Shown here: positions 6,562 through 63,880 of the stretch, piece after piece
Numbering within the stretch: the first letter of the stretch is position 1
Layout of the letters: each line of letters starts with the position of its first letter
From: a phage
Length of the DNA: 64,000 bases
Reading direction: 5' to 3' (one strand)
NCBI GenBank assembly: GCA_037574385.1
Contig: GCA_037574385.1_4529.1
Made by a program: the position numbers and the translations under genes
The notes under the pieces: generated by a model
What the model was told of the DNA's origin: nothing
What the model saw: only the letters and a program-made list of their open reading frames with translations
Databases searched by the model: none

Positions 6562-6602
6562 TTTATTCTCCAGATGTTTAAGTTGTTTGTTGGTACAGGT
6601 CT

Positions 6603-6631
6603 ATAATAACATAACCTGTACCAAAGTAAAC
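6603..6631 (-). promoter_or_regulatory. Early promoter module with 9-bp inverted repeat flanking -10
   Basis: GTTTAC-N17-TATTAT; arms GGTACAGGT / ACCTGTACC on either side of the -10; SD GGAGAATAAAATG downstream. Confidence 0.55.
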
Positions 6632-7004: not shown

Positions 7005-7045
7005 TTTATTCTCCAGTTTGTTTTATTGATTAGGTGGTACAAGTC

Positions 7046-7075
7046 TATAGTAACACATCCTACAGGAGAGTAAAC
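7046..7075 (-). promoter_or_regulatory. Early promoter module (PeSL-like)
   Basis: GTTTAC-N18-TACTAT followed by AGAC and SD. Confidence 0.5.
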
Positions 7076-8056: not shown

Positions 8057-8389
8057 TCACTTATAAAGACACGGAATAGCTTTATAGTGGCATGTTACGA
8101 ATTTCTGTTTAATTTCTTTAGGTTGTTTAAGACCTAAAGCCACAAATGGATGTGGAACATTTCGAATTTGTCCAACTGGTAGTGGAGTCAAATCACCGAC
8201 TTCAACAAAACCTTCAGGAACATCAGGACCTACAGAATGAACTACACATAGTTCAGGAACTTCACCTTGAACACGTTTACCAATCACAAGTCCTGATTCG
8301 GTAACTTCTTCATCACCTGCTTGAGCGGGTTCAGAAACCAGAATGACATATTCACCAACAGCACGAATTGGGAGTTGTACTTCAGACAT
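8057..8389 (-). CDS. 31: Gp31 co-chaperonin (GroES analogue) for capsid protein folding
   Basis: 110 aa; near-identical in character to T4 gp31 ([33 protein letters not shown]). Confidence 0.85.
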
Positions 8390-9326: not shown

Positions 9327-10318
9327 TATTGAACCTTATTAATATAAGTTAACAGCTCTTTAGTTTGTTCCCAACTGATGCACGCATCGGTAACGGAAAC
9401 GCCATAGGACATATTATCAGAAATTTTTTGATTTCCTTCATGTAGGAACGATTCTATCATAATTCCTTTGACCAAATCATTAGCTGCTAAATTTTTACCA
9501 ATACCAATTTGATTGCTATAATGCCCATCAGCGTTTGCATGGCTACAGTCAACCATCACATAATGATTCAGACCTACTGCCCTTGCTTTGTTAGAAGCTT
9601 CTTGAATATCAGAAGAATGATAGTTCGGGCCGTTGGTCCCGCCACGCAATACGATATGCGTATTCTGATTACCTTCAGCTTCAACAATGCCTACAGTACC
9701 ATCGACGTCCATACCCATATACCGATGAGGCCAGGCGGCACTATACATCGCGTCTGTAGCTACTTTAATAGAACCATTGGTTGCGTTCTTAAAGCCTACG
9801 CACATCGGTAGACCTGAAGCAATTTCACGATGTGTCTGACTTTCAGTCGTACGGGCGCCAATAGCAACCCATGAGAAAATACCAGAAAGATACTTAATCG
9901 TGAATGGGTCTAATACTTCAGTTGCTAATGGAAGTCCCATACGTAGAAGTTTACGACACAATGTTCGTGCAACTATAAGACCGTGGTTCATATCAAAACT
10001 TCCGTCAAGATATGGATCATTTACAAGACCTTTCCAACCTACGGTAGTTCGAGGCTTTTCAAAATAAACGCGCATCACTAACAGAACATTAGGAAGACGA
10101 GTTTGAAGTTCAGCCAGACGTTTGCCGTATTCAACAGCAGCAATAGGGTCATGAATTGAACAAGGACCTACAACAATAAGTTTGCGTGGGTCTTCACCGT
10201 TCATAATCGAATTAACTTGTTCGCGATGAGAAGCCACTTGTGATGCGTAAGCTTCCGACAAAGGAATAATCTCAGCCAGTTCTTTTGGAGAAATAAGTTT
10301 TCCGACGACAGGTAACAT
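9326..10318 (-). CDS. 3-deoxy-D-arabino-heptulosonate-7-phosphate (DAHP) synthase, class I AroG-like
   Basis: 330 aa; long colinear matches to E. coli AroG: VVGPCSIHDP, VMRVYFEKPRTTVGWKGLVNDP, IGARTTESQTHRE, GFKNATNGSIKVA, ESFLHEGNQ, ITDACI. Confidence 0.8.
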   Translation of the reverse strand: MLPVVGKLISPKELAEIIPLSEAYASQVASHREQVNSIMNGEDPRKLIVVGPCSIHDPIAAVEYGKRLAELQTRLPNVLLVMRVYFEKPRTTVGWKGLVNDPYLDGSFDMNHGLIVARTLCRKLLRMGLPLATEVLDPFTIKYLSGIFSWVAIGARTTESQTHREIASGLPMCVGFKNATNGSIKVATDAMYSAAWPHRYMGMDVDGTVGIVEAEGNQNTHIVLRGGTNGPNYHSSDIQEASNKARAVGLNHYVMVDCSHANADGHYSNQIGIGKNLAANDLVKGIMIESFLHEGNQKISDNMSYGVSVTDACISWEQTKELLTYINKVQ

Positions 10319-10438
10319 AACAATCCTTAGGAGATATAAACAGATTCTGATTCAACAATACCTTTAACCGGATTAGACAGGTTAAGTTGGTAGTGCTCAG
10401 ATTTATGACCATTCTCGATAGTAATGAGATAGCTCTCA

Positions 10439-10675: not shown

Positions 10676-10702
10676 TTCAATTTCCTCATTGTTGGTAGAG
10701 TC

Positions 10703-10732
10703 ATCATATCACAACTCTACGGTGTTGTAAAC
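10703..10732 (-). promoter_or_regulatory. Early promoter module with inverted repeat around -10
   Basis: GTTTAC-N18-TATGAT; arms GTAGAGT / ACTCTAC; leader CAACAATGAGGAAATTGAAATG. Confidence 0.5.
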
Positions 10733-12798: not shown

Positions 12799-12826
12799 TT
12801 AGATTTCCTCAATTATCCATAGGAGC

Positions 12827-12856
12827 ATTATACTCTGCTCCCGAGAGTTTGTAAAC
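12827..12856 (-). promoter_or_regulatory. Early promoter module
   Basis: GTTTACAAACTCTCGGGAGCAGAGTATAATGCTCC; near-identical to the module upstream of ndd. Confidence 0.55.
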
Positions 12857-37864: not shown

Positions 37865-38497
37865 TCACAGTACGTTAGTTACAAGGGTAATGATTTCTTT
37901 GGACACATTAGGGAAGTCAATGTAAGTATATTTACCACCGATCTTAATCTTAACATCATTTTCAAGAGAAGTAAACAGCTTTGATTCAGCTTCTGACATG
38001 TTGTATGCAAAGATTCTAAGAGCGCCATCTCGTCGAATTTCAATTTGGCGAATACCTAGAACTCGTTTTGCAAATCGAACTTCCAAGTTACTACGGTTTT
38101 CACCAATTTCTTTAACTTCAACTTTATCTTTAATATTTTCAAAAACAAAGTTTGCTAATTCATGCATTTCAGGAGTAACTCCACGTGCTTTTCTAGTGTT
38201 ACGTTTCTGAAGAAGTTCTGGAGCATTTTCTTGAGCAAATAGGTCTGCAGCTTTTTGGATAATATCCATTGCTTCGCCGGTTGCCACAAGTCCATCACCG
38301 GATTTTTCGACTAAACCTTTCTTAATCAATACACCAATGTTAGAGTTAACAACTGATGCGTTGTATTCTGCTTCCAGAGCTTCACGGACATTGGCAGCAG
38401 TGGTGAAGTTGTTCTTAATGATATAAACCATTATTGCCGCAGTTTTTTCATTCAGAGCGTTTTCAGAAGCTTTGATGATGTAAGTAACTTTAGACAT
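37865..38497 (-). CDS. motA: Middle-transcription activator MotA
   Basis: 210 aa (T4 MotA 211 aa); N-terminus MSKVTYIIKAS..LNEKTA and NSNIGVLIKKGLVEKSGDGL match T4 MotA. Confidence 0.8.
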   Translation of the reverse strand: MSKVTYIIKASENALNEKTAAIMVYIIKNNFTTAANVREALEAEYNASVVNSNIGVLIKKGLVEKSGDGLVATGEAMDIIQKAADLFAQENAPELLQKRNTRKARGVTPEMHELANFVFENIKDKVEVKEIGENRSNLEVRFAKRVLGIRQIEIRRDGALRIFAYNMSEAESKLFTSLENDVKIKIGGKYTYIDFPNVSKEIITLVTNVL

Positions 38498-41593: not shown

Positions 41594-41661
41594 GATGTTA
41601 TCCTCTTTTAGATAGGACTACTGTATCATAGTCCTACTTAGTTGTAAACACTTTTATGAAA

Positions 41662-47090: not shown

Positions 47091-48907
47091 TAGGACATCC
47101 ATTCTTTACGAAGTTCTGAATCATCACCCAACAACATTTCAAAGAGTTCTTTCCAATTTTCAGGAAGTTTAACTACGTCGTACACAGGGTTTTGAATCAT
47201 TTCACGATATTCTGACTTTTCAAGGGAGCCCAATCCCTTGATGTATCGAATACTATGCTTAGGCAGTGTATCTTTAGCTTCTTCATACTCAGCTACAGTA
47301 TAAAACCATTTTTGAGTTTTGCCGATTTGTGCAATAATTACAGGTGTTTTAACAAAGCGAATACGTCCTTGTTCAAACAATTCAGGCCAATTACTAAAGA
47401 AAGCAAGCAAAGCCGGATAGATACTTCCAAGACCGTCATGATCGGCATCGGTCATAATTGCAATATTACGATAGTTCGTATTCTCTGCCTTTTCACCAAG
47501 AATAAGACCTGTGATAGCACAGATATCAAAGAGCTCTTTGTTCTTCATCATATCGGCATATGACATACCCCAGCTATTCATCACCTTACCACGTAATGGG
47601 AATCCGCCGTGTAGTTCACGGTCACGAACATCAATGAGATATCCAATTGCCGAATCACCTTCTGTTAAAAACAATGTCGTATCTGCATCTTTACCGCATT
47701 GGTTAGCTTTAATATGCTTATGAACCTTAGCTTTAGTTGCCTTTTTAGCTGCTTTAGTTTCTGCAGCCTTTTCTGCTGCCAATTTACGAGCTAATGCTGC
47801 TTCAACAATAGGCATAATCAAGGCTTCGTTTTTAAGAAGTGCCTGAGCAATTTTCTTAGCATCTAATTGGATATGATTACGAATATCACCATACGTTGAC
47901 GTTAAACGTTCTTTAGTCTGAGAATCAAAACGCATGTTGCTCATGTCTCTAATAAACATCAACATTGTGAGACATTCTTTAACACGAGCTTTAGTGACTT
48001 CAATACCCTTATATTTCTTTTTAATACCCGGCAAAAGATGTTCGCAAATATCATCCATTACACATTCAACATGATGACCACCATTTTTAGTATGGATGTT
48101 ATTCACATAAGTTAAATGACGGAAGCCATCCGGTGATGTTGTGAATGCTATAGAGACTTTATCATTTTCTTGAATGATGTTATCTTCACCAAATTGTTTA
48201 GCAAATCGTTTAAAATTGCCATCAACCTTTTTACCATTAAATGTGAACTTGATATCAGGATAAACGACTGCCAATGTTTGAAGTCGGTCTAAAGTAATAT
48301 CTAAATAAATTTGAGATAAATTATGCTCTTCAAATGAAGTGAAATCAGGAGTGAAGATTACTTTAGTGCCTTTACCTTTAGATTTCTTAGAAGACCATGA
48401 TTTGTTTTCCATTCCGTTTGAACAGTTAACAGTGATTTCATTTTCGCCATCTGACGTGATGCCTGTAAACAACGTAGAGAAGATATTAGTTAAACTACTC
48501 CCGACGCCGTTCATACCACCTGTCTTGCGTTCAGAGTCGTCACCAAAGTTACCACCGGCCTTTGGAATAGTCCAGGCTGCTACAGGCCCAGGAATTTGTT
48601 CACCCGTTTGGTCGGTAACTAAACCTTGAGGAATACCACGTCCGTTATCTTCCACTGAAACTTGATTATTTTTAATTTGCACATCAATTTTATTTGCAAA
48701 CTTAAATGATGTACGAATAGCTTCATCAACCGAGTTGTCAATAATCTCATCGATTAATTTAACCAGACCAGGAACATATTCAACTTGTTGATATTTACCA
48801 AACAAAAAACGCTCATGTGCTTCTTTAGCTGAAGAACCAATATACATACCACTACGTTTCTTAATATGTTCTACATCTGACAGTACCTTAATTTCATTTT
48901 TAATCAT
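47090..48907 (-). CDS. 39: DNA topoisomerase II large subunit, fused gp39+gp60 (GyrB-like)
   Basis: 605 aa in one ORF; GHKL ATPase N-terminus (DNSVDEA, GRGIP) plus Toprim region; T4 splits this into 39 (516 aa) and 60 with a translational bypass. Confidence 0.85.
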   Translation of the reverse strand: MIKNEIKVLSDVEHIKKRSGMYIGSSAKEAHERFLFGKYQQVEYVPGLVKLIDEIIDNSVDEAIRTSFKFANKIDVQIKNNQVSVEDNGRGIPQGLVTDQTGEQIPGPVAAWTIPKAGGNFGDDSERKTGGMNGVGSSLTNIFSTLFTGITSDGENEITVNCSNGMENKSWSSKKSKGKGTKVIFTPDFTSFEEHNLSQIYLDITLDRLQTLAVVYPDIKFTFNGKKVDGNFKRFAKQFGEDNIIQENDKVSIAFTTSPDGFRHLTYVNNIHTKNGGHHVECVMDDICEHLLPGIKKKYKGIEVTKARVKECLTMLMFIRDMSNMRFDSQTKERLTSTYGDIRNHIQLDAKKIAQALLKNEALIMPIVEAALARKLAAEKAAETKAAKKATKAKVHKHIKANQCGKDADTTLFLTEGDSAIGYLIDVRDRELHGGFPLRGKVMNSWGMSYADMMKNKELFDICAITGLILGEKAENTNYRNIAIMTDADHDGLGSIYPALLAFFSNWPELFEQGRIRFVKTPVIIAQIGKTQKWFYTVAEYEEAKDTLPKHSIRYIKGLGSLEKSEYREMIQNPVYDVVKLPENWKELFEMLLGDDSELRKEWMS

Positions 48908-48956
48908 GTTGTCTCCTCGTTATGAAGGTATTCTATCATCCGAAATCTAAAGCAAA

Positions 48957-48972: not shown

Positions 48973-49396
48973 ATTTAAATTTAATTTTCTGAAGTGCATC
49001 AATTGCAGCCAAACGCCCTTGTTCACTTTTAACTGTAATGACCACATCGCCTGATACGATCACCGAACCATCAACAAATTCTATAGAGTCTTTTTTGAAA
49101 TCGACAGCTGTATCTGGTTCCGGAACTTCTTCAAAGAATTTAAATTCTGCACCATAAATCAGAATATCACCTTGCATACTATGAATAGTTCGGCCATAAT
49201 CGCCTACGGCTTCTACAGCAATCATTGAAACACCGTAACCAATCATCTCTTCCACAATAAAATCTTTAGACAATAAAGTAGTATGCAGATTAGTATTAAG
49301 ACGTTTACCAGTCGTATTAAGAATTCTCAAGAAATTATCTTCCTGTCCTTTGATAATACGGTATTTCTTGCCAATTTCAAAACCTTTAAAAGCCAT
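48971..49396 (-). CDS. Hypothetical protein
   Basis: 141-aa ORF. Confidence 0.5.
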   Translation of the reverse strand: MAFKGFEIGKKYRIIKGQEDNFLRILNTTGKRLNTNLHTTLLSKDFIVEEMIGYGVSMIAVEAVGDYGRTIHSMQGDILIYGAEFKFFEEVPEPDTAVDFKKDSIEFVDGSVIVSGDVVITVKSEQGRLAAIDALQKIKFK

Positions 49397-49401
49397 AATT
49401 A

Positions 49402-49578
49402 TCCCTTCTTAAGTAAGTCGTAAAAACCACCGTTCACATGTTTAGGAGCAGAAACCCGACGAGTAGACAGACGATGACATTCAGGGCAAACATCGTTTTC
49501 TCGTTCAGAAATCCTTTTAATTTTTTCATATTCATGACCACAATCTTCAGATTGACATTTATAGTCGTATAACGGCAT
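49402..49578 (-). CDS. FmdB-family zinc-ribbon protein (58 aa)
   Basis: Hand-called: MPLYDYKCQSEDCGHEYEKIKRISERENDVCPECHRLSTRRVSAPKHVNGGFYDLLKKG; CxxxC...CxxC pattern; SD AGGAAT upstream. Confidence 0.55.
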
Positions 49579-49580
49579 TA

Positions 49581-50009
49581 TTATTCCTTAAAATGTGTTT
49601 TCAACATTTGATACAAAGACCATGCCTGGTCGTTATTTTCGATAGTAATCGTCATCACCGGAAATTCGGTCAATTCATCAAGTTCTTCAGAGTCTTGCTC
49701 TTCAGACGCTTGATATGGATTTCCAACTTCATCAAAAAACTCTGCTTCACTAGTAGAGAGCCAGATAAAGTTTTCATCAAGAATATCACCACCAGTTGCG
49801 TATCCAACCATGCCAGTAGATGTCACAATTTTAGTAGGTCGACCAAGATGGTCAACATCTAATACTTTAAATGGTTCCATGCCAAGACGTCGTGCATAAA
49901 TCCCATTATCAGTGTGGTTTTTAATAAACTCTTCTTGGACACGTTTATCTTTAAATTGGTACCATGAGTTAACGCGGAATTTATTAGCCATTAGTAAGTT
50001 TCCTTCCAA
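49581..50009 (-). CDS. Hypothetical protein
   Basis: 142-aa ORF. Confidence 0.5.
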
Positions 50010-50263
50010 TAAGTTGTACCATTTTCAGTGATTTCACGGAAGATACCATAGATAGGCATTTCATCACCGAGTTTTTCGTAAACGTAAACCACTTCAGTGT
50101 AGCATAAAAATTCAGTCCAGTTTTTCTGTACAACAACTAAATCAGGATTAAACAGAACATCTTCAAACTCATCGATGTTTGAATCAGTAGTTACGTTTTT
50201 AATGATTTGACGTTTCATAATATTCTCCTCTTGTTTTGATAGGTCTATAGTATCATAGACCAT
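49991..50263 (-). CDS. Hypothetical protein
   Basis: 90-aa ORF with PeSL-type promoter upstream. Confidence 0.5.
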
Positions 50264-50275
50264 AGTTGTTGTACA

Positions 50276-50800
50276 TCATTTTAGCAAAATAAAATCAACT
50301 TGTTCTGCCAATGAACGTCTGAACATTAATTGACAACTTCCGAGGATGAAATCAGGTGCTTCATAGACCGCGATGTAGTATCCTTTAGCTTTCAAGAGTT
50401 CAACATCTACCTGGTCATCAAACCATGCATAAACCGCGTCAACACTTTCAAATCCAAAATAGAACCCTTGAGCCCAATCTTCACTCAATTCAAATGTGTG
50501 CTCAATTCTATAGTATCTTAAGATATTTTGTTCAAGGAGTTTATCTTCATTTACTGTAGGACGATTAGGGACATTATAGTTGTCGCCGTGATGGTAGAAA
50601 TTACCTGAGAGTATTCCATGTTTATCAAGGAACTCCCATGTTTCTTCAGAGTTGTCGGTGCCCGACCAACCGTAAGGTGAGCGAGGTTCTTTATTCCAAG
50701 AGGTTTCCCAAATTCTGACGGCTTTACCGTCTTCGATGGCAATTCCTGGTAATGATTCACGTTGAGTACAAAAACTACGTTCTACGCGGTAAACTAACAT
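50276..50800 (-). CDS. Hypothetical protein
   Basis: 174-aa ORF with PeSL-type promoter upstream. Confidence 0.5.
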   Translation of the reverse strand: MLVYRVERSFCTQRESLPGIAIEDGKAVRIWETSWNKEPRSPYGWSGTDNSEETWEFLDKHGILSGNFYHHGDNYNVPNRPTVNEDKLLEQNILRYYRIEHTFELSEDWAQGFYFGFESVDAVYAWFDDQVDVELLKAKGYYIAVYEAPDFILGSCQLMFRRSLAEQVDFILLK

Positions 50801-50859
50801 ATTATTCTCCTCTGGTTGATACGGTTATAATATCAAAACCAGAGGAGAAGTAAACAACT
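50801..50859 (-). promoter_or_regulatory. Early promoter module with 11-bp inverted repeat pairing spacer to SD region
   Basis: GTTTACTTCTCCTCTGGTTTTGATATTATAACCGTATCAACCAGAGGAGAATATAATG; arms CTCCTCTGGTT / AACCAGAGGAG. Confidence 0.5.
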
Positions 50860-51279
50860 TTATGCGAAAGCAGCCGGGCTATATTTTTTAATTTGGAATT
50901 CAGGAACTACCATGAACTGACCAGCGAAAACGATGTTATAAAGCTTAACACCATCTTCTACCCAACGGTCGCTAATAAATCCGGCGATTTGCTTAGTTTT
51001 CCATGGCGTTCCATCGGTTGCCGCAGCAATAGTGAATTCGTGGTCTTTTTCAACAGAAACTGATCTGCATAGTCCCCATTTGAACGCTTTTTCTTCTGGT
51101 TCAATGAATTGGCTTGAGACGTAGCCAATGTTGCCATCAGCATCACGAACTTTAACTTGATGTGGACTAAAGAGTCCACAACTTACAGAAAGAACTTCAA
51201 CCAACTTCCCAGCAACTTTAGAGCGAGAAGCAACAGATACATATACGTAATCACCAATAGAGAGATTTGCAATATTCAT
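50860..51279 (-). CDS. Hypothetical protein, paralog family member 1
   Basis: 139 aa; shares N-terminal SRSKVAGKLVEV and C-terminal GFISDRWVEDGVKLYNIVFAGQFMVVPE with the next two genes. Confidence 0.55.
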   Translation of the reverse strand: MNIANLSIGDYVYVSVASRSKVAGKLVEVLSVSCGLFSPHQVKVRDADGNIGYVSSQFIEPEEKAFKWGLCRSVSVEKDHEFTIAAATDGTPWKTKQIAGFISDRWVEDGVKLYNIVFAGQFMVVPEFQIKKYSPAAFA

Positions 51280-51288
51280 AATAATTCC

Positions 51289-51774
51289 TTAAGCTTTACG
51301 AGGAGACACATAACGAGTGATTTCGGATTCTTTAACAACTCTGAAGTCACCTAAGAATACGATATTGTATAACTTTTCACCATCTTCAACCCATTGGTCA
51401 CTAATGAAGCCACACATAGTATCAGTTTTGCTTGGATAACCGTATTCATCGATGAAGTCAAATTCTTTATCAGTCTGGAATTCAACGCCTTTGCAAAGGG
51501 CCCATTTGAACTGTACATTATGCTCTGTGGATTCAACTTTTTCTCTTGAAGCAAAAGCACTACTCACAGGCGTTTCCAAGAACTTTGCACGAACATAAGC
51601 AAATTTGGTTTCCTGTGTCCCAAAACTAGGAATAATACGAACCTTTACCTCAGAATCTTCATCTTTAACGCCTTCTTTAAGTTGAATACTTACAACTTCG
51701 ACCAATTTTCCTGCGGCTTTAGAACGAGATTTGTTAGATACGCGAACGATTTCACCAATAATACCAAGATTCAT
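51289..51774 (-). CDS. Hypothetical protein, paralog family member 2
   Basis: Tracked ORF 51289..51837 over-extended; probable start MNLGIIGE at about 51774; shares SRSKAAGKLVEV and GFISDQWVEDGEKLYNIVFLGDFRVVKE. Confidence 0.5.
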   Translation of the reverse strand: MNLGIIGEIVRVSNKSRSKAAGKLVEVVSIQLKEGVKDEDSEVKVRIIPSFGTQETKFAYVRAKFLETPVSSAFASREKVESTEHNVQFKWALCKGVEFQTDKEFDFIDEYGYPSKTDTMCGFISDQWVEDGEKLYNIVFLGDFRVVKESEITRYVSPRKA

Positions 51775-51836
51775 AATTTCTCTCTCTTTGTTTAAATTGA
51801 ATTCATTATACTCCATCCATCCTTGGATGTACAACA

Positions 51837-52331
51837 TTAATTAAGGATATTAACCACAGCACTACGTGGAACTACACTAAAATCACCTGCATGAACAACG
51901 TTCAGAAGTTCAACACCGTCTTCAATCCACTGGTCAGTTACCCATCCATTTACTGGACCTGCGAAAGGACGTCGAATTGAAACATATTTACACAGCAAAT
52001 CAGTAGGCTCAATAGGCTTAATCAGAGTACCGTACATACAAGCGATATCCATATCAATACAGATGTCTTTAACGGGTTCTACTTCTTCAATCAACAGTTC
52101 AAAGTCTGTGCTTGGAAGGGCGGTAGTGGAAATTGTACCATATGAATTTTTAATTTCTAAGAATAACCAAGGGCCTTCAGCTTGTTTGATGAAGTTAACA
52201 ATAGTGAAACTATTGCCTTGAGTGGCACCTAAAATTTCACAAAACTTTTCGTAAGCTCGCACTGAAGCACTGTACCAGTTGATTTGTTTTTCGTCTTTCA
52301 GGATGTAAGTAGCCGTAGTATTGATATTCAT
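51837..52331 (-). CDS. Hypothetical protein, paralog family member 3 (divergent)
   Basis: 164 aa; C-terminal GWVTDQWIEDGVELLNVVHAGDFSVVPR aligns with members 1 and 2. Confidence 0.5.
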   Translation of the reverse strand: MNINTTATYILKDEKQINWYSASVRAYEKFCEILGATQGNSFTIVNFIKQAEGPWLFLEIKNSYGTISTTALPSTDFELLIEEVEPVKDICIDMDIACMYGTLIKPIEPTDLLCKYVSIRRPFAGPVNGWVTDQWIEDGVELLNVVHAGDFSVVPRSAVVNILN

Positions 52332-52397
52332 AATGTTTTTCCTGTTTGGTTAAGATAGAAAGATTATACTCCAACCATCCTTGGTTGTAAACTGATT

Positions 52398-53075
52398 TTA
52401 TCGCTGTTTTACACTTAACGGGTCAGGATTCTCAGGGACATCTTCAAGGCCAAGCGCATAACGCTGAGCATATTTTAACATCAAAATATCTTTAGCACAA
52501 TCATGAATACTATCATGGGCAATGAATCCTTTTAGCGTACCCATAGGTAATGGACACATACTTAATCCTCGCGTCAACGAGTAAGCTTCGATTGCCGTAC
52601 GAATATCGCGTTGAGCCCAGAATTTAACCGGTTCTAATTTATCAGTATCAATATCTGGTTCAAGAACACCTTCATCACGATAGAGGTCACGAATCAAATC
52701 GACCAAGATCGGGAAGTCAAAGCTCATACCACGGCACCACATCTGTGATTTCCATTGGTCAACTTTATTAGCTCGACAATAATCTAAAAAGATTTTAATG
52801 CCTTCAAGCGTAGTGACATCGTCTTCAGACGGAGCCAGGTTTTTACGTGCTTCTGCTGATTGTTCTTTCCACCATTTCATAGTGGATTTAGCGAAAACTC
52901 GCTTCCCTTTTTGAGAAGCTAAATTAAATTTAATTCGCTTACCTCGTTGAACAAGTTCTTCAAATGTTTCAACAACTTCAGGGTCCGAATTATATGCAAT
53001 AACCGCAAGGTCAATAACAGCCGCTTTTGATGTATTGCCGAATGTTTCAAAATCTATAATAACATCAGTGCTCAT
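52398..53075 (-). CDS. dexA: Exonuclease A (DEDD 3'-5' exonuclease)
   Basis: 225 aa (T4 DexA 227 aa); Exo I motif VIIDFETFG; immediately upstream of dda as in T4. Confidence 0.7.
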   Translation of the reverse strand: MSTDVIIDFETFGNTSKAAVIDLAVIAYNSDPEVVETFEELVQRGKRIKFNLASQKGKRVFAKSTMKWWKEQSAEARKNLAPSEDDVTTLEGIKIFLDYCRANKVDQWKSQMWCRGMSFDFPILVDLIRDLYRDEGVLEPDIDTDKLEPVKFWAQRDIRTAIEAYSLTRGLSMCPLPMGTLKGFIAHDSIHDCAKDILMLKYAQRYALGLEDVPENPDPLSVKQR

Positions 53076-54708: not shown

Positions 54709-55455
54709 TTAACCTTTAACCAATTGGAATAATGATGCGCTAAGTGGTAAGCCACGTTTCAATTTTAATTTACCAATGAAACCAATCTTTTCAAAACGTT
54801 GCAAACCTTGGATAACTTTATCATATGTATCGAAAAGCGATTCAGCGTCAGTTAATTTAGTTTTAGTTTTCCAGTCAGAGCCTTTAAGAAGAACGTTGAG
54901 TTTAGTAAGTTCATGGCCTTCTGCTTGGTGTGAACCATTAATGCGTGCTTTCAAAGCAACAATTCTAAGTTTAGATTCGTTAGATAAAGGTTGATTTTTC
55001 ATCATGTTCGCCATATGCTTAACACGATTTTCACGTTTTGCTCGGATTTTTAAAATAGTACCATAAACCTTTTTAATTTGGGCCCATTTCTTCTCGTCGA
55101 GATTAAGTTTCTCTACTTTACGGACAGAAGGATTAGCGATACGTCTTGCAATGGCATCACGTTTCTCAATAAGTTCTTCTAATGTTAAATCAGAACGAGC
55201 CGTGTTATATTTTTTCTTAACTGGGATAACATTACCTTTAATGTAGCCGATATCGTTATCAAAACGTTCTAAGGATAATTTCTCACCTTCAACAGAGTTA
55301 TTGAAAGATTCACCTGAGTAAGCGCAGACCTTTTGATCAAGAATGTTTTTAAGGTAATTAAAGTCTAAGTTAAAATCCTTAGAGCGTCTCTTCGCAGAAG
55401 CTCTGGTGTGGTCAAGACGACGATTGATTTTGTTAATTTTATTATTTGATAACAT
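54709..55455 (-). CDS. Hypothetical basic protein; positional candidate for Srd
   Basis: 248 aa; lies between dda and the Mod ADP-ribosyltransferase where T4 has srd; contains a Cys/His-bearing segment (CAYSGESF ... ERFDNDIGYIKGNV). Identity by position only. Confidence 0.35.
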   Translation of the reverse strand: MLSNNKINKINRRLDHTRASAKRRSKDFNLDFNYLKNILDQKVCAYSGESFNNSVEGEKLSLERFDNDIGYIKGNVIPVKKKYNTARSDLTLEELIEKRDAIARRIANPSVRKVEKLNLDEKKWAQIKKVYGTILKIRAKRENRVKHMANMMKNQPLSNESKLRIVALKARINGSHQAEGHELTKLNVLLKGSDWKTKTKLTDAESLFDTYDKVIQGLQRFEKIGFIGKLKLKRGLPLSASLFQLVKG

Positions 55456-55608
55456 AATATTTTCCTCTGTCTTACGGACGTTAGGTCATTTAGCTGATAA
55501 GCTTATAATATCATGCCCTCAGGTAGTGTACACTCTTTTTTTCGTAAAATGCTTTAATTTTTTATGTGTTATAATGGTTCTGAGTTCCATCCGGTTATTC
55601 CAATCCAG

Positions 55609-56274: not shown

Positions 56275-56409
56275 CTAAAAATTCAACATTTTCAAATGAA
56301 TGATTTTGTATAATCGAGATAAAGGGTCATATTCTAAGTCTTCAATTTCCACAATCTCAAATCTAGAGATACTTGAGACCATGTACTCTTGTTCAGATTG
56401 ACATGTCAT
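56275..56409 (-). CDS. Small protein (44 aa)
   Basis: Hand-called: MTCQSEQEYMVSSISRFEIVEIEDLEYDPLSRLYKIIHLKMLNF; strong SD TGGAGGT and PeSL-type promoter (GTTTAC-N17-TATGAT) directly upstream. Confidence 0.45.
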   Translation of the reverse strand: MTCQSEQEYMVSSISRFEIVEIEDLEYDPLSRLYKIIHLKMLNF

Positions 56410-56419
56410 GATAGACCTC

Positions 56420-56466
56420 CATTTAAAGATAAGCCTATCATAACACGAGAGGAGGGAATGTAAACT
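56420..56466 (-). promoter_or_regulatory. Early promoter module upstream of 44-aa ORF
   Basis: GTTTACATTCCCTCCTCTCGTGTTATGATAGGC...GGAGGTCTATCATG. Confidence 0.45.
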
Positions 56467-57954: not shown

Positions 57955-57985
57955 CGAAAAAAAAAAGGAATCCCGAAGGATTCCT
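57955..57985 (-). terminator. Strong intrinsic terminator after soc
   Basis: AGGAAUCC-UUCG-GGAUUCCU (8-bp stem) followed by a 10-nt U-tract. Confidence 0.7.
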
Positions 57986-57993
57986 TAAATTAT

Positions 57994-62051: not shown

Positions 62052-62114
62052 TTTAACTCCTTAGTTGATTTGATAGGACTACTATACTATAGTCCATCTA
62101 TAATGTAAACAAGT

Positions 62115-62864: not shown

Positions 62865-63074
62865 TTATCGAAAATCAGCTTCAAAAACTTTCTCGTCATT
62901 AATAAATGCTTTAACAAGTGCACTGTTCACTTCGGCGAGTTGTACCGCAACCCACTCGATTTCTTCACGATCACCTGATAACATGATATCTTTAGTGAAC
63001 ATCTCACCACTTTTAAACCAGCCAATAAAAGTAATTTTAGTTAATTTGCTCATATTTCCTCGCAAAATGCCCAT
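62865..63074 (-). CDS. Hypothetical small protein; weak positional candidate for Dmd (RnlA/LsoA antitoxin)
   Basis: 69-aa tracked ORF (about 62 aa from internal Met MSKLTKITFIGWF); size near T4 Dmd (60 aa) and in the 61-41 interval; identity unverified. Confidence 0.3.
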   Translation of the reverse strand: MGILRGNMSKLTKITFIGWFKSGEMFTKDIMLSGDREEIEWVAVQLAEVNSALVKAFINDEKVFEADFR

Positions 63075-63367
63075 TCAGCGTGATAAACTGTAGCACCTTT
63101 AGTATCGTTCATTTGAACTACGTCTACCGGAGAAATTACTCGATAGAGACGTGGTTCACCTCCATAAGAGCGTGCTGCTCGTCCTGCATAAATCTTTGCT
63201 AAACCGATATCTTCAGTAAAGAATACACGATTCAAGTTTTTCTTACGTCCAGTTTCAGACAGAACTCCTGTTTCTTCAGGAGGACAAAGCATGTTTTCGA
63301 TGTTAGCTGAACTACTTGAACCGTGATAAAAAATCTTAAATTCTGCTTTACAATCGATGGTTTTCAT
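63050..63367 (-). CDS. Hypothetical protein with H-G-S / Y / E pattern
   Basis: 105 aa; FYHGSSS, KIYAG and YHAEW elements occur in the order seen in H-Y-E class ADP-ribosyltransferase folds, but the protein is short; tentative. Confidence 0.4.
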   Translation of the reverse strand: MKTIDCKAEFKIFYHGSSSSANIENMLCPPEETGVLSETGRKKNLNRVFFTEDIGLAKIYAGRAARSYGGEPRLYRVISPVDVVQMNDTKGATVYHAEWAFCEEI

Positions 63368-63422
63368 TTTGTTCTCCAGTAGTTGATAGGTCTATAATAA
63401 CACAACTACTGGAGAAGTAAAC
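63368..63422 (-). promoter_or_regulatory. Early promoter module with 14-bp inverted repeat pairing spacer to SD region
   Basis: GTTTACTTCTCCAGTAGTTGTGTTATTATAGACCTATCAACTACTGGAGAACAAAATG; arms TTCTCCAGTAGTTG / CAACTACTGGAGAA. Confidence 0.5.
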
Positions 63423-63862: not shown

Positions 63863-63880
63863 AGGAGACCGAAGTCTCCT
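63863..63880 (-). terminator. UUCG-tetraloop hairpin after gene 41
   Basis: AGGAGAC-UUCG-GUCUCCU just after the candidate gp41 stop. Confidence 0.5.

Follow-up and report, generated by a model that had tools for sequence, protein, structure and literature searches.

Promoter-embedded hairpins that may hide the translation starts of motB.2 and modB in read-through RNA of a T-even phage

Why should an early promoter carry, between its -35 and -10 elements, a sequence complementary to the Shine-Dalgarno (SD) sequence of the gene that it drives? The question is raised by the promoter of a motB.2-like gene (positions 50801-50859) in a 64,000-nucleotide stretch of phage DNA (contig GCA_037574385.1_4529.1 of GenBank assembly GCA_037574385.1; the whole stretch is hereafter called the window). 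The window comes from a Mosigvirus, an RB69-like T-even phage, and its part from 49000 to 53000 (the dexA-motB-cef region) is about 98% identical to Shigella phage ESh27, Escherichia phage phiC120, and Shigella phage Shf125875. Our analysis suggests that, at motB.2, modB, and a small open reading frame (ORF) starting at 63367, RNA reading through from upstream promoters may hide the SD and/or start codon in a hairpin, whereas RNA started at the gene's own promoter would remain open. From sequence comparison and predicted folds, we give this reading a probability of about 0.6. The elements of the motB.2 cassette (50855 below) are as follows.

50850..50855, minus strand: -35 element GTTTAC of the promoter of the motB.2-like gene.
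50837..50849, minus strand: 5' arm TTCTCCTCTGGTT in the -35/-10 spacer, anti-SD-like, untranscribed from its own promoter.
50827..50832, minus strand: -10 element TATTAT, extended (TGa before it), in the hairpin loop.
50820, minus strand: predicted transcription start, the A at the 7th nucleotide after the -10 element, placed from the A at +7 in 20/23 cassettes.
50805..50817, minus strand: 3' arm AACCAGAGGAGAA, containing the SD GAGGAG (50807-50812).
50276..50800, minus strand: motB.2-like ORF of 174 aa, ATG at 50800-50798, belonging to no Pfam family.
52363..52392, minus strand: nearest upstream early promoter, the likely source of read-through across the 50855 cassette.

Cassettes of this kind are ordinary strong sigma-70-dependent early promoters of T-even phages, lying in gaps of ~60 bp between early genes. 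Throughout the window the motif GTTTAC-N17/18-TAnnAT has 19 matches, all of them on the minus strand (0.76 expected; none of 100 shuffles reached 19), which also carries most genes, with a tail-fibre block at ~26-36 kb on the plus strand. Eighteen of the 19 lie in tight intergenic gaps, and a relaxed scan added about six promoters with one variant base (62110, 56275, 55533, 41649, 41137, and 25218), giving about 23-25 stereotyped cassettes including variants. Their order is stop codon, -35, -10, conserved A at +7, SD, and ATG; the stop codon of the upstream gene lies 2-16 nt 5' of the -35 element and the ATG mostly 26-31 nt 3' of the -10 element, and same-orientation orthologues of the early genes motB.2, modB, modA, srd, sp, 30.7, alc, and alt.-3 follow such sites. 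By direct reading, TGn ends the spacer in ~15 of the 19 exact sites and A-rich tracts lie 5' of the -35 element. Downstream of the -10 element, 23 cassettes give the consensus A-G-n-C-Y-T-A-T-C-A-A-C, with T at +6 in 19 and A at +7 in 20 of them, a conservation across cassettes that fits a putative start site 7 nt after the -10 element. The sequence-only reading of the window had listed at least 15 minus-strand sites sharing a longer string, GTTTAC-N17/18-TAnnAT-AGAC..ATCAAC..GAGGA; its promoter part was borne out, but the downstream part is not common to 15 sites, since AGAC follows the -10 element in only 4 of the 23 cassettes (AGAC or AGTC in 8), ATCAAC is present in 8, and GAGGA or GGAG in 20. 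The intragenic match at 37976 (37947-37976, minus strand) is a perfect GTTTAC-N18-TAAGAT inside an ORF, without SD or ATG nearby, and could represent an internal promoter, a relic, or a chance match. The T4 GenBank record has no promoter features annotated in the corresponding region; from its coordinate only, we take the site at T4 position 8218 to be the classic early promoter P8.1.

At 50855 the two arms form a 13-bp stem that includes the SD, and no terminator-like site was found between promoter 52392 and this cassette. RNAs were folded either from 30 nt upstream of the -35 element (read-through RNA) or from the predicted start (promoter-initiated RNA); the predicted pairing probability of the SD was 1.00 in the former vs 0.42 in the latter. 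At a minority of the promoters, the DNA upstream of the start complements the gene's own leader, by way of either the -35/-10 spacer or the -10/discriminator region. A polymerase coming from an upstream promoter would transcribe both arms, and the resulting stable hairpin would bury the SD and/or AUG. A polymerase using the cassette's own promoter would start ~7 nt after the -10 element, within the loop or the 3' arm, and its short leader, lacking the 5' arm, would be open to ribosomes and to the nuclease RegB. Protein output might then track the gene's own immediate-early promoter and not the sum of all upstream promoters, a form of translational insulation in which motB.2, modB, and one small ORF would probably be translatable only from RNA of their own promoters. 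In T4, early transcripts do extend through downstream genes, and translation-dependent polarity has been described (PMC2988021).

Within Mosigvirus the cassettes are almost invariant and hold too little signal for covariation. A single-protein search of viral contigs gave near-identical loci only, and motB.2 loci were gathered by alignment searches. The loci encoding motB.2 homologues form five lineages, and in all five the translation initiation region (TIR; SD plus start codon, with masking measured as its pairing with pre-start sequence) is masked by an arm lying upstream of the predicted start, although the arms themselves differ. The stem is TTCTCCTCTGGTT/AACCAGAGGAGAA in Mosigvirus and TTCTCCTCATG/CATGAGGAGAA in the Dhakavirus type; in the T4 type it is a 17-bp bulged stem of TCCTCGGT.TAGTTGTGG with CCACCATAGCTACTGAGGA, the -10 element lying in the loop; and in two distant lineages (46-49% protein identity) the -10/discriminator region pairs with SD plus AUG (ATGATGGCCTT with GGAGGTCATCAT and ATGCCTTCCTA with TAGGAGGGTAT). 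The stems run 3-12 bp past the SD/anti-SD core in lineage-specific sequence. In the three lineages whose arm lies in the spacer, the first three stem positions vary yet remain paired (U-A, A-U, G.U; G-C, U-A, G-C; G-C, G-C, U-A), and two T4-type variants keep the pairing as well (G-C to G.U in L025, G.U to A-U in L028). When arms were swapped between lineages, own duplexes gave -17.8 kcal/mol vs -9.8 for crossed ones, and the native combination was the best of 120 permutations. RNAalifold predicted no pairs on a MAFFT alignment of the motB.2 cassettes because the arms shift register between lineages.

Masking of SD or AUG specific to read-through RNA was predicted at three sites of the window only, namely 50855, 63422, and 56465. 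The features of the latter two are given below.

63372..63422, minus strand: second SD-masking cassette, with -35 at 63417-63422, -10 at 63394-63399, and ATG at 63367.
63403..63416 and 63372..63385, minus strand: its 5' arm TTCTCCAGTAGTTG and 3' arm CAACTACTGGAGAA, 14 bp, SD included.
56404..56465, minus strand: modB-promoter cassette with a 15-bp stem containing three G.U pairs.
56431..56445, minus strand: modB 5' arm TGTTATGATAGGCTT, covering the extended -10, -10, and discriminator and ending 1 nt before the predicted start.
56404..56418, minus strand: modB 3' arm AGGTCTATCATGACA, the end of the SD plus the AUG.

The masking hairpins of 50855, 56465, and the 63367 ORF have predicted energies of -21 to -24 kcal/mol and fold z-scores of -4.2 to -6.1, and the 5' arms of masking cassettes end 1-17 nt before the predicted start, which falls at 56430 in the modB cassette and at 63387 in the 63422 cassette. 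For modB, pairing of the -10/discriminator region with SD plus AUG is found in T4, JS98, and Mosigvirus, which are three genera, and its arms, like those of motB.2, co-vary with the TIR. At 63422, the predicted SD pairing was 1.00 in read-through vs 0.21 in promoter-initiated RNA, and no terminator-like site lies between promoter 63856 and this cassette. In Dhakavirus-type genomes the gene of the 63367 ORF stands directly behind the gene 41 terminator, and only TCTCC/GGAGA is present there; the strong stem occurs where an extra promoter-bearing gene upstream makes read-through certain, a relation that is suggestive as a single case. In the srd-type cassette 55533 (55451-55517, minus strand), a 45-nt loop would separate the extended -10 GGCATGATATT from its possible partner AATATTATGTT around the start codon; the duplex is rich in A and T, includes G.U pairs, and may be due to chance.

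Are the repeats more frequent than chance would allow? The four inverted repeats quoted in the sequence-only reading (50855, 63422, 6631, and 10732) are present exactly as claimed, with fold z-scores of -3.2 to -6.1 vs shuffles. A repeat of 7-14 bp had been ascribed to many sites, and the repeats are indeed real and above chance, but they occur in a minority: a perfect spacer/leader stem of at least 7 bp is found in 6 of 23 cassettes, or about 9 once G.U pairs and overlap with the -10 element are allowed. By comparison, such stems arise in 22 of 506 cross-pairings and in 2.2% of shuffled spacers (about 1 expected). Own spacers match own leaders better than all cross-pairings do (p<5e-5 for both mean stem length and duplex energy), and the count of stems of at least 7 bp gave a permutation p of 3e-4, or 2e-4 when re-run on a uniform cassette set. 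The six strongest promoter-straddling hairpins reach -11.9 to -24.2 kcal/mol (z -2.8 to -6.1). Inclusion of the ribosome-binding site (RBS), said to happen sometimes, is strong at 50855 and 63422, and 56465 masks the AUG, but 63856 has only a weak 7-bp stem and most other repeats never touch the SD. The excess is replicated in related phages: own pairings in T4 gave -11.5 kcal/mol vs -6.8 for crossed ones (p<5e-5), with 8 of its 20 cassettes reaching -15 or lower, and JS98 gave p=0.004. Over the full set, the cassettes of the window have no better folds than random segments of the same strand (p=0.19), hairpins lying wholly within the spacer (CAC..GTG type) are marginal (p=0.066), and Rfam gave no match at gathering score anywhere in the window.

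Several observations weigh against the masking hypothesis or narrow it. Across the class, TIR masking of native cassettes (0.415) equals that of chimeras with swapped halves (0.408, p=0.41), and spacers containing TTCTCC are generic anti-SD sequences that pair with any GGAGAA SD, including that of a chimeric cassette in phage phi25-307 described below. The long stem at 63422 is Mosigvirus-specific and not kept outside this genus, its swap test is not significant (15/120), and one of its pairs, A-U in the window, is G.U in HX01 and A.C in ST0; within Mosigvirus, a single substitution in ST0 also puts a C.A mismatch into the 50855 stem. The transcription starts used here are placed by spacing from the -10 element. 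A greater stability of sense over antisense RNA, p=4e-4 at first, fell to a pooled p of 0.08 with a random same-strand control (T4 p=0.02; no signal in the window). A MotA-type middle promoter was also not found upstream of motB.2, and we therefore do not claim a switch from early to middle expression; the MotA pattern is not enriched (9 matches vs 11.8 expected), and none of its matches lies upstream of motB.2. The physiological benefit that we propose, dosage insulation, is a conjecture, albeit a more economical one than that switch.

Class-wide masking also equals that of chimeras in JS98 and shows a weak effect in T4 (p=0.019), and RBS sequestration as a property of the whole cassette class was rejected on the equality of native cassettes and chimeras. 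Masking of 0.8 is reached by only 0.6% of chimeric cassettes, which gives p=0.0115 for two such cassettes in the window. The dual control suggested by the sequence-only reading, in which read-through but not promoter-initiated transcripts would sequester the RBS, is well supported by comparison at motB.2 (five lineages, co-varying arms) and modB (three genera) but not as a feature of the class. From the predicted folds at these loci and the co-variation of their arms with the TIR, we infer that the hairpins form in vivo and lower translation of read-through RNA.

Among other explanations, the one that survives best is that published for promoter-early stem-loop (PeSL) cassettes of T4-type phages, in which the stem-loops terminate or attenuate read-through transcription and the cassettes serve mainly as recombination points for gene shuffling. 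As a name, PeSL-like is apt, because published subclasses have the stem between the -35 and -10 elements or overlapping the -10 element (PMC2839356; Arbiol 2010), and a PeSL stem-loop of phage phi1 cut lacZ expression like a strong terminator (PMC2839356). In the T4/PST pair, the PeSL promoter consensus is TTTACW-N17-TAYWAT (PMC4122927; Comeau 2014). Terminator-then-promoter layouts do occur in the window, at 57986-57965/57946 and upstream of 63856.

57965..57986, minus strand: intrinsic-terminator-like hairpin with a U-run, just upstream of promoter 57946.
63864..63879, minus strand: GGAGAC-TTCG-GTCTCC hairpin followed by TTT, just upstream of promoter 63856, terminator-like in part.

However, the stems bracketing a -10 element in the window all lack a U-tract behind them and were never called terminator-like in the sense direction, so that an intrinsic-terminator reading of these stems was rejected on sequence grounds; RBS masking plus polarity can likewise lower a reporter. 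Moreover, termination leaves unexplained why, from lineage to lineage, the 3' arm at motB.2 and modB keeps to the SD/AUG and the 5' arm moves.

The shuffling part of the PeSL model has one clean example. In Shigella phage phi25-307 (locus L059, 1746-1804), motB.2 is precisely gone and a chimeric cassette is left, made of the 5' half of the motB.2 cassette through GTTTACTTCTCCTCT and, from TACTATAGACCTATCAAAACAAGAGGAGAATATT-ATG onward, the 3' half of the cef cassette. Pairing of TTCTCCTCT with AGAGGAGAA is retained in the chimera, and the gene was lost by recombination between the motB.2 and cef cassettes, as the model predicts. In T4, near-identical cassettes stand at two unrelated places, ~136336 before alc and ~123093 before alt.-3 (L009), alike from the -35 element to the SD although the genes are unrelated, and both pair AAGTCCCTCGTGTT with the SD region, which suggests cassette copying. 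On the other hand, none of about 10 indels relative to the close relatives HX01, ST0, and mar005P1 is cassette-mediated, leaving phi25-307 as the one clear case of a cassette at a recombination junction. The two indels that adjoin cassettes, at 62871 and 56390, had a cassette-mediated origin rejected: both are microhomology deletions (5 and 9 bp). At ~62871 (minus strand), a 203-nt segment is absent here that in HX01, ST0, and mar005P1 carries a small ORF of ~70 aa directly upstream of the 62851 cassette, and the junction is an ATTTC microhomology. Relative to the same three phages, modB has an in-frame 438-nt deletion (minus strand) between 9-bp direct repeats AATCTGAAC, leaving a remnant ORF of 44 codons (56275-56409, minus strand) with promoter and hairpin upstream intact. 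Both deletions resemble the microhomology deletions documented in T4, which recombines readily at 6-10-bp homologies (PMC9391042). Two further differences, ~1.1 kb at 9328-10423 that is absent from mar005P1 and ~670 nt extra in HX01 at 48.9 kb (48906-48921; annotated HNH endonuclease), probably reflect gain or loss of mobile endonuclease genes. Considering the evidence on termination and shuffling together, it seems unlikely that the PeSL model as published accounts for the repeats studied here.

Most of the other repeats raise a different issue, as they lie around the -10 element and miss the SD.

6590..6631, minus strand: gene 30.7 promoter with a hairpin around the -10 element, arms 6613-6624 and 6590-6601, SD untouched.
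10695..10732, minus strand: promoter with a hairpin around the -10 element, arms 10711-10720 GTAGAGTTGT and 10695-10704 ATGACTCTAC, no TIR involvement.
41612..41649, minus strand: promoter with a hairpin around the -10 element, arms 41628-41637 GTAGGACTAT and 41612-41621 GTAGTCCTAT.
62076..62110, minus strand: spackle (sp) promoter with a short repeat around the -10 element, GGACTA(T)/(G)TAGTCC.
12821..12856, minus strand: promoter with GGGAGCA/TGCTCCT around TATAAT, a look-alike of the T4 motB cassette (GGGACC/GGTCCC).
50242..50261, minus strand: weaker cef promoter with GGTCTAT/ATAGACC around TACTAT, the partner in the phi25-307 recombination.

All six are tight around the -10 element and never reach the SD; most repeats of this kind have their 5' arm immediately before the extended -10 and a 3' arm that begins no more than 3 nt from where the -10 element ends. 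The 6631 repeat (TTGGTACAGGT/ACCTGTACCAA) has 11 bp, or 12 with one G.U, and the 10732 repeat (GTAGAGT/ACTCTAC) 7 perfect bp, or 10 with G.U, the SD being excluded from both. Neighbouring cassettes at 6603-6631 and 7047-7075 (minus strand) share the leader end CTGGAGAATAAAATGA and look paralogous, the 7075 repeat being a degraded form of the 6631 repeat. The repeats at 6631, 10732, 41649, 62110, and 12856 share in the excess over chance, yet masking does not explain their role; they may act as an RNA 3'-end barrier, as an attenuator, or at the DNA level.

A DNA-level function for the repeats in general would mean that they tune the promoter (cruciform or hairpin extrusion, melting) or serve as palindromic binding sites for a protein, of phage or host origin, by which early promoters are switched off. 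Several facts would suit it: most of the repeats outside the TIR share a single geometry around the -10 element, the gene 30.7 hairpin is found in every sampled lineage and its core GGTACAGG/CCTGTACC hardly varies between genera, as would be expected of a protein site, and the mechanism of early-promoter shut-off is not understood (PMC3014915, PMC2988021). The long stems of the window are perfect Watson-Crick palindromes and equally stable on both strands, and the strand test therefore cannot separate RNA-level from DNA-level action. Nevertheless, arm sequences vary from promoter to promoter and therefore could not be read by any single protein, and the motB.2 and modB arms co-vary, hold G.U pairs, and shift relative to the hexamers yet still match the TIR. 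In addition, T4 cassettes are more stable as sense RNA, and the G.U pairs of the T4 type, L018, L019, and 56465 would be A.C mismatches on the opposite strand, so that these G.U-rich stems favour action at the RNA level. We regard the DNA-level explanation as quite improbable.

Least probable of all is a largely non-adaptive origin, in which purine-rich SDs find chance complements in pyrimidine-rich spacers, and the template switches or microhomology events frequent in T4 produce and homogenise short palindromes, which are tolerated afterwards: class-wide masking at the chimera level, TTCTCC spacers that mask most leaders, the overall folding of window cassettes like random same-strand windows, the readiness of T4 to recombine at short homologies, and a fast turnover of repeats (the orthologous alc, alt.-3, and sp promoters carry different repeat kinds in different genera) would fit it, but it is opposed by the own-vs-cross excess in three genera, by the lineage-specific extension of the motB.2 stems beyond the core and their native combination being the best of all permutations, by the gene 30.7 hairpin, which is kept amid diverging flanks with G-C to G.U in L053 as its sole arm change, and by two paralogous T4 cassettes (before mobD.2 and dmd) that by direct reading differ by two double compensatory and two wobble-compatible changes and by no disruptive one.

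The masking hypothesis at the three loci invites a wider one, namely that T-even phages may use a general promoter-embedded translational insulator, with the anti-TIR arm encoded by the untranscribed half of an immediate-early promoter and each such gene translated only from RNA of its own promoter. We hold this extension to be doubtful. Were it true, read-through RNA would yield no protein and would resist RegB, and its lack of translation would expose it to Rho polarity; dosage and timing could be controlled gene by gene within tandem strong promoters; and part of the attenuator activity of PeSLs might be explained without a terminator. For annotation, the cassettes are best treated as ordinary early promoters with an extra layer in a few only.

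Published data on RegB agree with the masking reading. RegB cuts GGAG or GGAU in early SDs and is blocked by structure (PMC1702504). The leaders of 63422 (GGAGAACAAAA, 63372-63382) and 6631/7075 (GGAGAATAAAA, 6566-6576 and 7009-7019), all on the minus strand, match the strong RegB consensus GG*AGRAYARAA exactly, and that of 50855 has one mismatch; judging from this motif, the mRNAs of the 63422 and 6631/7075 cassettes are probably RegB targets. In vivo, efficient cutting is seen at only two intergenic GGAU sites, and the T4 motB.2 SD holds one of them (PMC1702504); therefore open leaders exist. T4 modB RNA was RegB-resistant in vitro but cut in vivo (PMC1702504), the former presumably through structure. 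RegB is a trans-acting nuclease whereas a masking hairpin is a structure in cis, which might shield read-through RNA from it. If confirmed, masking would explain in structural terms how certain GGAG/GGAU sites can be RegB-resistant in vitro and yet cut in vivo.

How, then, do these cassettes compare with known systems? As promoters they do not differ from the early promoters of T4-type phages, a classic model system for which 57 early promoters were predicted in RB69 (Nolan et al. 2006; PMC1524935): they have the same 'uber' UP/-35/TGn/-10 design, with GTTTAC, a 17-18 bp spacer, TGn in most, TAnnAT, A-rich upstream sequence, and C-rich positions -3 to -1, and they occupy the same position before early genes on the early strand. 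Inverted repeats straddling the promoter are not mentioned in the T4 reviews or in Nolan 2006. With PeSLs, a subset shares the compact intergenic arrangement of early promoter, stem-loop, SD, and ATG, as well as one gene-deleting cassette recombination. PeSL stems, however, have been read as terminators or attenuators, with a G-run/C-run in phi1/RB49 and a position upstream of the promoter in PST/T4, whereas the stems of the window lack a U-tract and have the SD/AUG as their 3' arm at motB.2, modB, and the 63367 ORF, which points to translational masking instead of termination. The terminator activity of PeSLs in reporters may, by the same token, partly be translational masking.

The closest parallel is found in the T4 genes e, soc, 49, and I-TevI, in which a hairpin covers the TIR on long transcripts and a proximal promoter starts inside the structure, leaving short transcripts translatable (PMC3014915). 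As in these genes, the SD/AUG is predicted to be buried on read-through RNA, and the structure is kept among relatives at motB.2 and modB. The promoters of e, soc, 49, and I-TevI, however, are gp55-dependent late promoters serving an early-off/late-on switch, whereas those of the window are immediate-early sigma-70 promoters with the 5' arm in the -35/-10 spacer or -10/discriminator region and, as their likely purpose, insulation. T4-consensus early promoters, promoter-overlapping stem-loops of PeSLs, and RBS hairpins spanning late promoters are thus all known already; a masking hairpin at the early promoters of motB.2 or modB was not found in the searchable open-access reviews and papers, older subscription literature (e.g., Liebig and Rueger 1989) being outside this scope, and the early-promoter version at these two genes, co-varying across genera, appears to be new relative to that literature. 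If confirmed, it would account for the way in which genes behind very strong tandem promoters escape cumulative over-expression and would represent an early-promoter version of the device known from e, soc, 49, and I-TevI.

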